This document shows, in pieces, positions 14,393 through 14,533 of a DNA stretch of 64,000 nucleotides; positions within the stretch are counted from its first letter, which is position 1, and each line of letters opens with the position of its first letter. Both the position numbers and the translations under genes were made by a program. A model generated the notes under the pieces. It did not search any database. It had not been told where the DNA came from and saw only the letters and a list, made by a program, of their open reading frames with translations. Source of the DNA: a virus (taxonomy: Duplodnaviria > Caudoviricetes); the IMG/VR virus record IMGVR_UViG_3300025679_000005, one strand, 5' to 3'.

Positions 14393-14434
14393 GGCCCGAT
14401 CCTACACCGGTTCGCTAGGCTCCAGCTTCTCCTC

Positions 14435-14495
14435 GTCTCAGCGTACTGAGCAATCGAGAGCCTCACTCTACACCGTCTCAGCGTACTGAGCAATC
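14435..14495 (-). CRISPR. two-handle mini-array of 21-nt CasPhi repeat handles, 19-nt spacer
   Basis: gtctcagcgtactgagcaatc at 14435-14455 and 14475-14495. Confidence 0.88.
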
Positions 14496-14533
14496 AGCAA
14501 TCACCCATAGTACACCGATAATTTATCTCTTGG

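Follow-up and report, generated by a model that had tools for sequence, protein, structure and literature searches.

A truncated mini-array in a huge CasPhi-encoding phage reads as two candidate promoter-handle units in tandem

Virus-borne mini-CRISPR arrays, reportedly described by Medvedeva et al. in 2019, are said to serve in inter-viral conflict and to consist of full-length repeats with a spacer that matches a related virus. Viruses also carry solitary repeat units, the Racrs, often with a promoter immediately before them (Camara-Wilpert et al. 2023, PMC10651486); these are expressed as small RNAs that occupy Cas proteins. CrRNA-like RNAs of the CreR and Cracr type have been described for type V-A and type I systems, where they carry a PAM-flanked match of at least 10 nt to the promoter of a cas or toxin gene (10.1101/2023.03.10.532045; 10.1101/2024.10.29.618823; PMC10120712) and give non-cleaving effector complexes. 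Competition for the effector has been shown for Racrs and for a spacer-mutated Cracr (PMC10651486 and the crRNA-like RNA papers above). A literature search for links between Cas12j/CasPhi and standalone repeats or mini-arrays returned no report.

The stretch of DNA analysed here (64,000 nucleotides, henceforth the window) comes from a huge peat phage with a genome of ~464 kb that encodes its own CRISPR nuclease, CasPhi. Positions 14393-14533 form a divergent intergenic region with an 86-aa gene (minus strand) on one side and a 184-aa gene (plus strand) on the other. Read along the minus strand, the region (henceforth MA2) consists of an AT-rich run, ATCGGTGTA, 15 nt, handle 1, a 19-nt pseudo-spacer, handle 2, 26 nt, a third GGTGTA motif, 10 nt and the ATG (14392) of the 86-aa ORF. 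The features of the locus are as follows.

7376-8171, minus strand: cognate CRISPR array B, 11 full 36-nt repeats with 36-40-nt spacers; GGTGTA 85 nt upstream, at 8238-8233
8240-10527, minus strand: casPhi (Cas12j) gene, 761 aa from the ATG at 10527
10583-10666, plus strand: sister mini-array MA1, i.e., GGTGTA (10583-10588), 20 nt, handle (10609-10629), 16 nt, handle (10646-10666)
10652-14392, minus strand: 8-gene operon; one product is AAA_33 kinase-like, another (292 aa) is widespread in huge phages
14132-14392, minus strand: 86-aa gene, first of the operon
14403-14408, minus strand: P3, the GGTGTA of the downstream gene, 10 nt before its ATG
14409-14434, minus strand: 26-nt linker, the would-be pseudo-guide of handle 2; no terminator before the gene
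14435-14455, minus strand: handle 2, a 21-nt copy identical to handle 1
14456-14474, minus strand: pseudo-spacer GGTGTAGAGTGAGGCTCTC, 19 nt, with a 5-bp internal hairpin; its first 6 nt are P2
14474-14469, minus strand: P2, the second GGTGTA, 13 nt upstream of handle 2
14475-14495, minus strand: handle 1, GATTGCTCAGTACGCTGAGAC; matches the last 21 nt of the CasPhi repeat exactly, with the hairpin CTCAG-TACG-CTGAG plus AC
14511-14516, minus strand: P1, a GGTGTA promoter-type motif in the context ATCGGTGTA, 15 nt upstream of handle 1
14534-15088, plus strand: divergent neighbour, a 184-aa protein (phrog_984, PF26915 P4 cII-like)

An earlier, sequence-only reading of this DNA had described two exact 21-nt handles 40 nt apart and ~6 kb from the array, each preceded by GGTGTA, and had given the spacer between them. 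All of this holds: GATTGCTCAGTACGCTGAGAC is present in two exact minus-strand copies, 14495-14475 and 14455-14435, whose starts are 40 nt apart, the motif stands 15 nt before handle 1 and 13 nt before handle 2, and the spacer is GGTGTAGAGTGAGGCTCTC. Array B, which lies directly downstream of casPhi on the same strand, is 6.3 kb from MA2, and casPhi itself is 3.9 kb away. The stretch is part of a single contig and is free of variants in the reads of the source-sample DNA run. Searching 10400-14800 against Rfam gave no family, and a scan for Sigma-70 promoters and terminators gave nothing relevant, with no terminator between handle 2 and the 86-aa gene.

The three motifs of MA2 read TCGGTGTA (P1), ACGGTGTA (P2) and CCGGTGTA (P3), each conforming to (C/T)GGTGTA at a fixed short distance from what follows (15, 13 and 10 nt, against 9-14 nt for genes). 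The two handle-bearing units have just the 6-nt motif and the 21-nt handle in common, while their linkers are unrelated (ctatgggtgattgct vs. gagtgaggctctc), which is the pattern expected from selection on those two elements. We therefore consider it likely, on sequence grounds, that MA2 consists of two promoter-handle units in tandem.

MA2 resembles Racrs in being derived from a repeat, keeping the predicted Cas-binding part, having no exact target in the collections scanned and lying directly downstream of a putative promoter (GGTGTA 13 and 15 nt upstream). By contrast, carriers of Racrs lack cognate cas genes and disarm the system of their host, whereas this phage encodes casPhi (8240-10527) and array B on the same contig; moreover, the MA2 units are arranged in tandem, appear to depend on a single-box promoter specific to the phage and continue into an operon. 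As in CreR and Cracr loci, we see a degenerate mini-CRISPR with a short pseudo-spacer that was not acquired and with the effector-binding handle kept (the exact 21-mer, its hairpin and positions -1, -2, -17 and -18). MA2 differs from them in its effector, CasPhi (type V-J), in having no PAM-flanked promoter match of at least 10 nt within the 64-kb window (the best is 9 nt), and in its position 3.9 kb from casPhi: those loci have a conserved position by the cas gene, while MA2 is absent from a close relative, L004, and its design is conserved at other positions. Given that its carrier has cognate cas genes and that no such promoter match was found in the 64-kb window, MA2 would work like Racrs and CreR-type RNAs while being a member of neither family. 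With the mini-arrays attributed to inter-viral conflict it has in common that a single spacer and a pair of repeats stand apart from any full array on a viral genome; however, its repeats are truncated, and its 19-nt spacer is half the normal length with no match found. Nor is it a canonical CRISPR array, as it keeps 21 of the 36 nt of the repeat, and its spacer (19 nt vs. 36-40 nt) starts with the phage's own promoter-type motif and has no protospacer that we could find.

We then asked what the motif represents. GGTGTA occurs 58 times in the window, and 22 of these sites are followed, 9-14 nt on, by the ATG of an ORF that encodes 60 aa or more, i.e., 38% are found at gene starts compared to a mean of 5% for 59 permuted hexamers. 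No -35-like element is conserved near it, the sole additional signal being a (T)C just upstream. The motif also lies upstream of the arrays in their presumed crRNA sense (34 nt for array A, at 1901; 85 nt for array B, at 8238; 108 nt for array C, at 19472) and at 20, 15, 13 and 16 nt before truncated handles in, respectively, MA1 (10583), MA2 unit 1 (14516), MA2 unit 2 (14474) and a solitary A-type unit (978). With 58 sites on 128,000 strand positions (~0.7% per 16-nt window), four matches among the nine units outside arrays have an estimated chance of ~4e-7, and 3 of 3 arrays within 120 nt one of ~2e-4, the sense of array C having been set solely by the position of the motif. That GGTGTA precedes non-coding units as well as genes points to a transcription signal and argues against a ribosome-binding signal. 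On the other hand, it is frequent in 20-nt gaps inside operons, where it overlaps upstream stop codons, so that a start signal acting at the RNA level would fit too. Overall, the motif is most likely a compact gene-start signal of this phage clade and a putative promoter. It serves as a gene-start motif in L005, L008, L010, L011 and L012 of the related loci examined, and does not in L013.

Several other elements of the window were observed in this context. The A-type unit (932-978, minus strand) comprises GGTGTA, 16 nt, an array-A-like handle GCTCAGGGGCTCCAATACTGAGAC and a T-run ~65 nt downstream, and looks like a discrete small-RNA gene. At 2420-2460 there is a degenerate A-type repeat in which the antisense 5' part reads GGGTGTAG, as opposed to GGGTGTTG in the array repeats, a change that creates a plus-strand GGTGTA 9 nt before the ATG of a 134-aa ORF; read this way, repeat-derived sequence would have turned into a promoter. 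The site at 19465-19472, TTTTTGGTGTAGACTGAGACC, also contains CTGAGAC, the 3' end of the handle. A second start-region element, CCCTTAACTT followed after about 10 nt by GATCCGTTCTACTGATCATG and ending in ATG, was found at 47475-47503, 55213-55260, 55982-56029, 61423-61470 and 63403-63450, and differs from the GGTGTA class; it has the appearance of a two-box promoter of leaderless mRNAs.

The handle is the 3' part of the 36-nt repeat of array B, and in all four truncated copies of MA2 and MA1 the 5' 15 nt of that repeat are replaced by unrelated sequence. Allowing at most one mismatch, the window contains 18 copies of the 21-mer against 0 expected (0 in 100 shuffles), with 11 of them in array B, 3 in near-full-length solitary repeats (6142, 7031 and 61371), 2 in MA2 and 2 in MA1. 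The four truncated handles of the two mini-arrays are identical at 21/21 positions, and the linkers between motif and handle are unrelated. A structure preprint on CasPhi3 reports that the handle spans -1 to -18, with contacts to C-1, the A-2:G-17 pair and U-18 (10.1101/2021.06.27.449965). Counted from the 3' end, C-1, A-2, G-17 and U-18 are all present in the 21-mer, with a 5-bp stem and a 4-nt loop between them. Furthermore, the stem covaries among CasPhi relatives (CTCAG/CTGAG in the window and L005; CTCGG/CCGAG in L010, L011 and L013; CCCAG/CTGGG in L012), amounting to compensatory changes in 2 of its 5 pairs. As the CasPhi3 contacts are kept and the stem covaries, we infer that CasPhi binds the truncated 21-nt handle.

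MA1, which the sequence-only reading had not linked to MA2, has the opposite orientation to it and is placed back to back with the promoter motif of casPhi. We found no close relatives of CasPhi or of the 184-aa neighbour in viral_contigs, nor any match to the 21-nt handle there; against the phage collection, CasPhi gave distant TnpB-like matches only. Comparing the operon proteins with Pfam, PHROGs and PDB sequences gave the AAA_33/ATPase match only.

We next compared the loci around CasPhi homologues at 36-58% identity, seeking the 3' handle of each phage outside its own array. In L010 we found a back-to-back TACACC-gc-GGTGTA followed by 17 nt and GATTGCTCGGTACGCCGAGAC without the 5' part of the repeat, with an ATG 5 nt on; in L012, TTTTCGGTGTA is followed by 11 nt and GATTGCCCAGCTCGCTGGGAC, likewise without the 5' part. 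Both are distant from the phage of the window (~36% protein identity), and the genes downstream of their handle units show no homology to each other. Each handle has the stem variant of its own phage, which suggests that such units co-evolve with the cognate array. Tandem promoter-plus-handle units had been the first of two explanations offered by the sequence-only reading, and it gains support here: the succession of motif, 13-20 nt and truncated handle occurs four times in the window and again in L010 and L012.

Handle copies were seen in further settings. DNA run X1 (the probable source of the assembly) contains a 3.8-kb contig of similar depth, record 3, with two sense handles ~1.06 kb apart, one of them preceded by GTTGGTGTATAATCCC (i.e., GGTGTA, 9 nt, handle); it has no counterpart in the window, so there would be more such units in the phage or in a co-occurring relative. 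Three metagenome contigs that have nothing else in common with the window also carry the exact 21-nt handle, lacking the 5' part of the repeat (L001 1163-1183, L002 1624-1644 and L003 624-701). In one case the handle sits within a tRNA cluster, with a tRNA-Thr ~90 nt further downstream; in another, an ATG follows after 27 nt; and in the remaining one, two handles enclose a 36-nt spacer and are followed by an ATG 31 nt on. These could be decoys borne by competitors. In L010, handle copies continue past the regular 25-repeat array as an unevenly spaced tail (14337-14727; spacing 46-114 nt), several of them without the 5' part of the repeat. Finally, repeat or handle units lie 2-6 nt from start codons in three phages (7031-7051 and 6142-6162 in the window, L010 7461-7481 and L011 14423-14443), with the junctions GAGAC-agtcca-ATG, GAGAC-tgaa-ATG, GAGAC-ctcgg-ATG and GAGAC-ct-ATG, such that the seed of the 'guide' would include the ATG, a hint that translation may be under CasPhi-dependent control.

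To see whether the pseudo-guides have targets, we searched for the 19-mer spacer and the 20-mer after handle 2, and found no exact match in viral_contigs or among the prokaryote species genomes of genome_contigs, nor any second match with at most 3 mismatches in the 64-kb window. As in any array, the guides themselves adjoin the GAC of the handle where they are encoded, rather than a T-rich PAM.

Based on these observations, we propose that RNAs made from the MA2 units occupy or buffer the phage's own CasPhi, a reading to which we give about the same weight as to all the others taken together. In this model MA2 would act as two tandem units, each made of a GGTGTA promoter, 13-15 nt and a minimal CasPhi-binding handle (the last 21 nt of the repeat). 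If transcription starts 9-12 nt after the motif, as the spacing at genes suggests, the RNAs would begin 1-6 nt before the handle; the promoter would thus set the 5' end at or just before the handle, and no cleavage by CasPhi would be needed there. The phage's own CasPhi would bind these RNAs and thread the downstream 14-20 nt as a guide. Such guides would never have been acquired as spacers, given that the guide of unit 1 is the second promoter and that of unit 2 the leader of the next operon. With no PAM-flanked target found for either, the complexes would stay idle and would not cut, and the simplest consequence would be that MA2 RNAs compete with array crRNAs for CasPhi. As there is no terminator after handle 2, some transcripts would also read through into the operon with CasPhi bound at their 5' end. 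The promoter role of GGTGTA, the position of the transcription start, the binding of CasPhi and the decoy effect are all deduced from sequence patterns, and any rationale for a decoy against the phage's own nuclease, such as timing or the protection of replicating DNA, is speculative.

The read-through transcripts give rise to the main rival reading, in which the handles act in cis and the MA2 units may chiefly serve the downstream operon. CasPhi sitting on the handles of transcripts from P1 and P2 would then control their stability or translation and couple the 8-gene operon to CasPhi levels, with P3 giving a handle-free mRNA. The lack of a terminator between handle 2 and the gene fits this well, as does the frequent placement of repeat or handle units right before a gene of the same strand, with the ATG in some cases 2-6 nt away (7031 and 6142 in the window; 7461 and 16411 in L010; 14423 in L011; also in L002 and L003). 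However, in compact phage genomes any sense intergenic element is upstream of some gene, and MA1, L005 16249 and L012 9469 are antisense to genes. In MA2 itself, P3 stands between the handles and the ATG, meaning that the normal, near-leaderless mRNA would be without handles, and the ATG is 42 nt from handle 2, beyond the ~20-nt guide channel. We thus regard a 5' tag acting in cis as unlikely, if still the best of the alternatives to occupancy of CasPhi.

A further explanation is that the handle copies are leftovers of recombination or of repeat spread near casPhi, devoid of a function themselves. It draws on the comparison with L004 (a 2.8-kb contig at 80-84% nucleotide identity), in which the casPhi start lies ~82 nt from the P4 cII-like gene, with a single TTACACCGATT between them (780-870). 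Window positions 10597-14510, i.e., MA1, the eight minus-strand genes and MA2, are missing from L004. This segment is bounded by direct copies of TACACCGAT (10587-10595 and 14511-14519), with the handle pairs as its inverted termini. No deletion joint like that of L004 was seen in reads of the source-sample DNA run. One possibility we tried and rejected was a mobile cassette, with the inverted mini-arrays as terminal repeats and a 9-bp target duplication: L008, a more distant relative without casPhi, has the operon genes in the same order and with the same neighbours. Given this synteny, the operon appears ancestral, and the state of L004 is better read as a deletion there than as an insertion here; most likely, judging by the sequences, L004 lost the segment by recombination between two direct copies of the promoter motif. 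In L008 the homologue of the 86-aa gene is preceded by GGTGTA, also 10 nt from the ATG, but by no handles; these appear to have been added in the casPhi-bearing lineage, the operon being older. Their absence from L004 indicates that both mini-arrays are dispensable; together with the position of the units at the ends of the indel and the scatter of handle copies around the locus, it speaks for an inert by-product. By contrast, it is hard to reconcile with such a by-product that four truncated copies are identical at 21/21 positions with unrelated flanks, that every truncation keeps the structurally defined handle, and that the promoter-handle arrangement recurs in two distant phages, whose handles track their own arrays. 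We consider inert leftovers improbable.

The second explanation in the sequence-only reading was a regulatory one, in which the first 8-9 nt of the handle-1 RNA (GGTGTAGA) serve as a seed that parks CasPhi, without cutting, on a T-flanked subclass of phage promoters and so switches transcription. This built on the recurrence of the spacer's first 8 nt upstream of genes at four sites (3037, 19472, 37876 and 62811), which are indeed preceded by GTT, TTT, TTT and CTT. The octamer does recur at these sites, but not only there (11 occurrences in the window vs. 1.65 expected), and while 3037 and 62811 lie 9 and 13 nt before ORF starts, the other two are no simple gene starts: 19472 is upstream of array C, and 37876 lies 42 nt before an ATG, just past a terminator-like hairpin. 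Since the 19-nt spacer is the putative promoter of unit 2 plus its linker, 8-nt matches at other promoters are the motif itself, and the proposal loses its basis.

Apart from the T-rich trinucleotides before those four sites, the best case for a seed is 19472-19465 (minus strand), TTTTTGGTGTAGACTGAGACC: situated 108 nt upstream of array C, it has a TTT PAM and agrees with the MA2 spacer in 14 of 19 positions. In addition, crRNA-like repressors with partial matches exist for Cas12a (10-nt match) and Cas9 (11 bp). However, a 14/19 match at one of 10 motif sites has an estimated chance of ~0.3 and is not significant alone, and the known repressors use 10-11 bp plus a PAM. The four T-flanked sites all read GGTGTAGAC where the spacer reads GGTGTAGAG, i.e., they resemble each other more than they resemble the spacer. 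TT at -3 and -2 (TTN, the PAM reported for CasPhi3; 10.1101/2021.06.27.449965) was found in only 2 of the 10 other GGTGTAGA sites. Within the 64-kb window, the longest prefix match outside the locus itself is 9 nt, without a T-rich PAM, which equals the median of random 20-mers; across seven pseudo-guides, the best such matches (8-10 nt) lie in the same range as those of 300 random 20-mers from the window. Moreover, the spacer folds on itself (5-bp hairpin), and the single-handle units of L010 and L012 have no promoter-like guide. With prefix matches at chance level, a seed-only switch is unsupported and we hold it to be very improbable. We are barely less sceptical of a broader version in which CasPhi also regulates the phage's own genes, promoters firing into minimal handles so as to recruit it to the 5' ends of chosen transcripts and the GGTGTAGA seed directing it to TTN-flanked promoters, including the leader of array C (19472). 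If true, CasPhi would be an RNA-programmed switch of phage transcription, acting among others on what has been described as a rival array.

It is just as improbable as the seed-only switch that one or both pseudo-guides are hard-wired true guides against a competitor phage or host missing from the searched databases: CasPhi arrays in huge phages are thought to target competitors, and 19 nt is probably long enough for cleavage by CasPhi, but exact searches of viral_contigs and genome_contigs with the 19-mer and the 20-mer came up empty, guide 1 starts with the phage's promoter motif at the distance expected for the promoter of handle 2, and guide 2 is simply the upstream region of the operon. 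Separately, spacer 8 of array B (7600-7564) has a 15-nt internal match to the 86-aa gene just downstream of MA2 (14227-14241; E 0.004 in a ~190-kb database) and may be directed against a relative's copy of that gene.

If the MA2 RNAs are expressed and loaded, occupancy of CasPhi would make them the first case found of crRNA-like or decoy RNAs for a type V-J effector, and of a virus aiming such RNAs at its own effector rather than at that of its host. The units would also constitute a natural guide-expression cassette that dispenses with 5' processing, in which a 6-nt promoter box, about 10-15 nt and a 21-nt handle amount to a minimal natural CasPhi scaffold. That this design recurs in CasPhi phages only distantly related suggests that a layer of control over CasPhi has been conserved, and may reflect a CasPhi-dependent RNA biology in huge phages.
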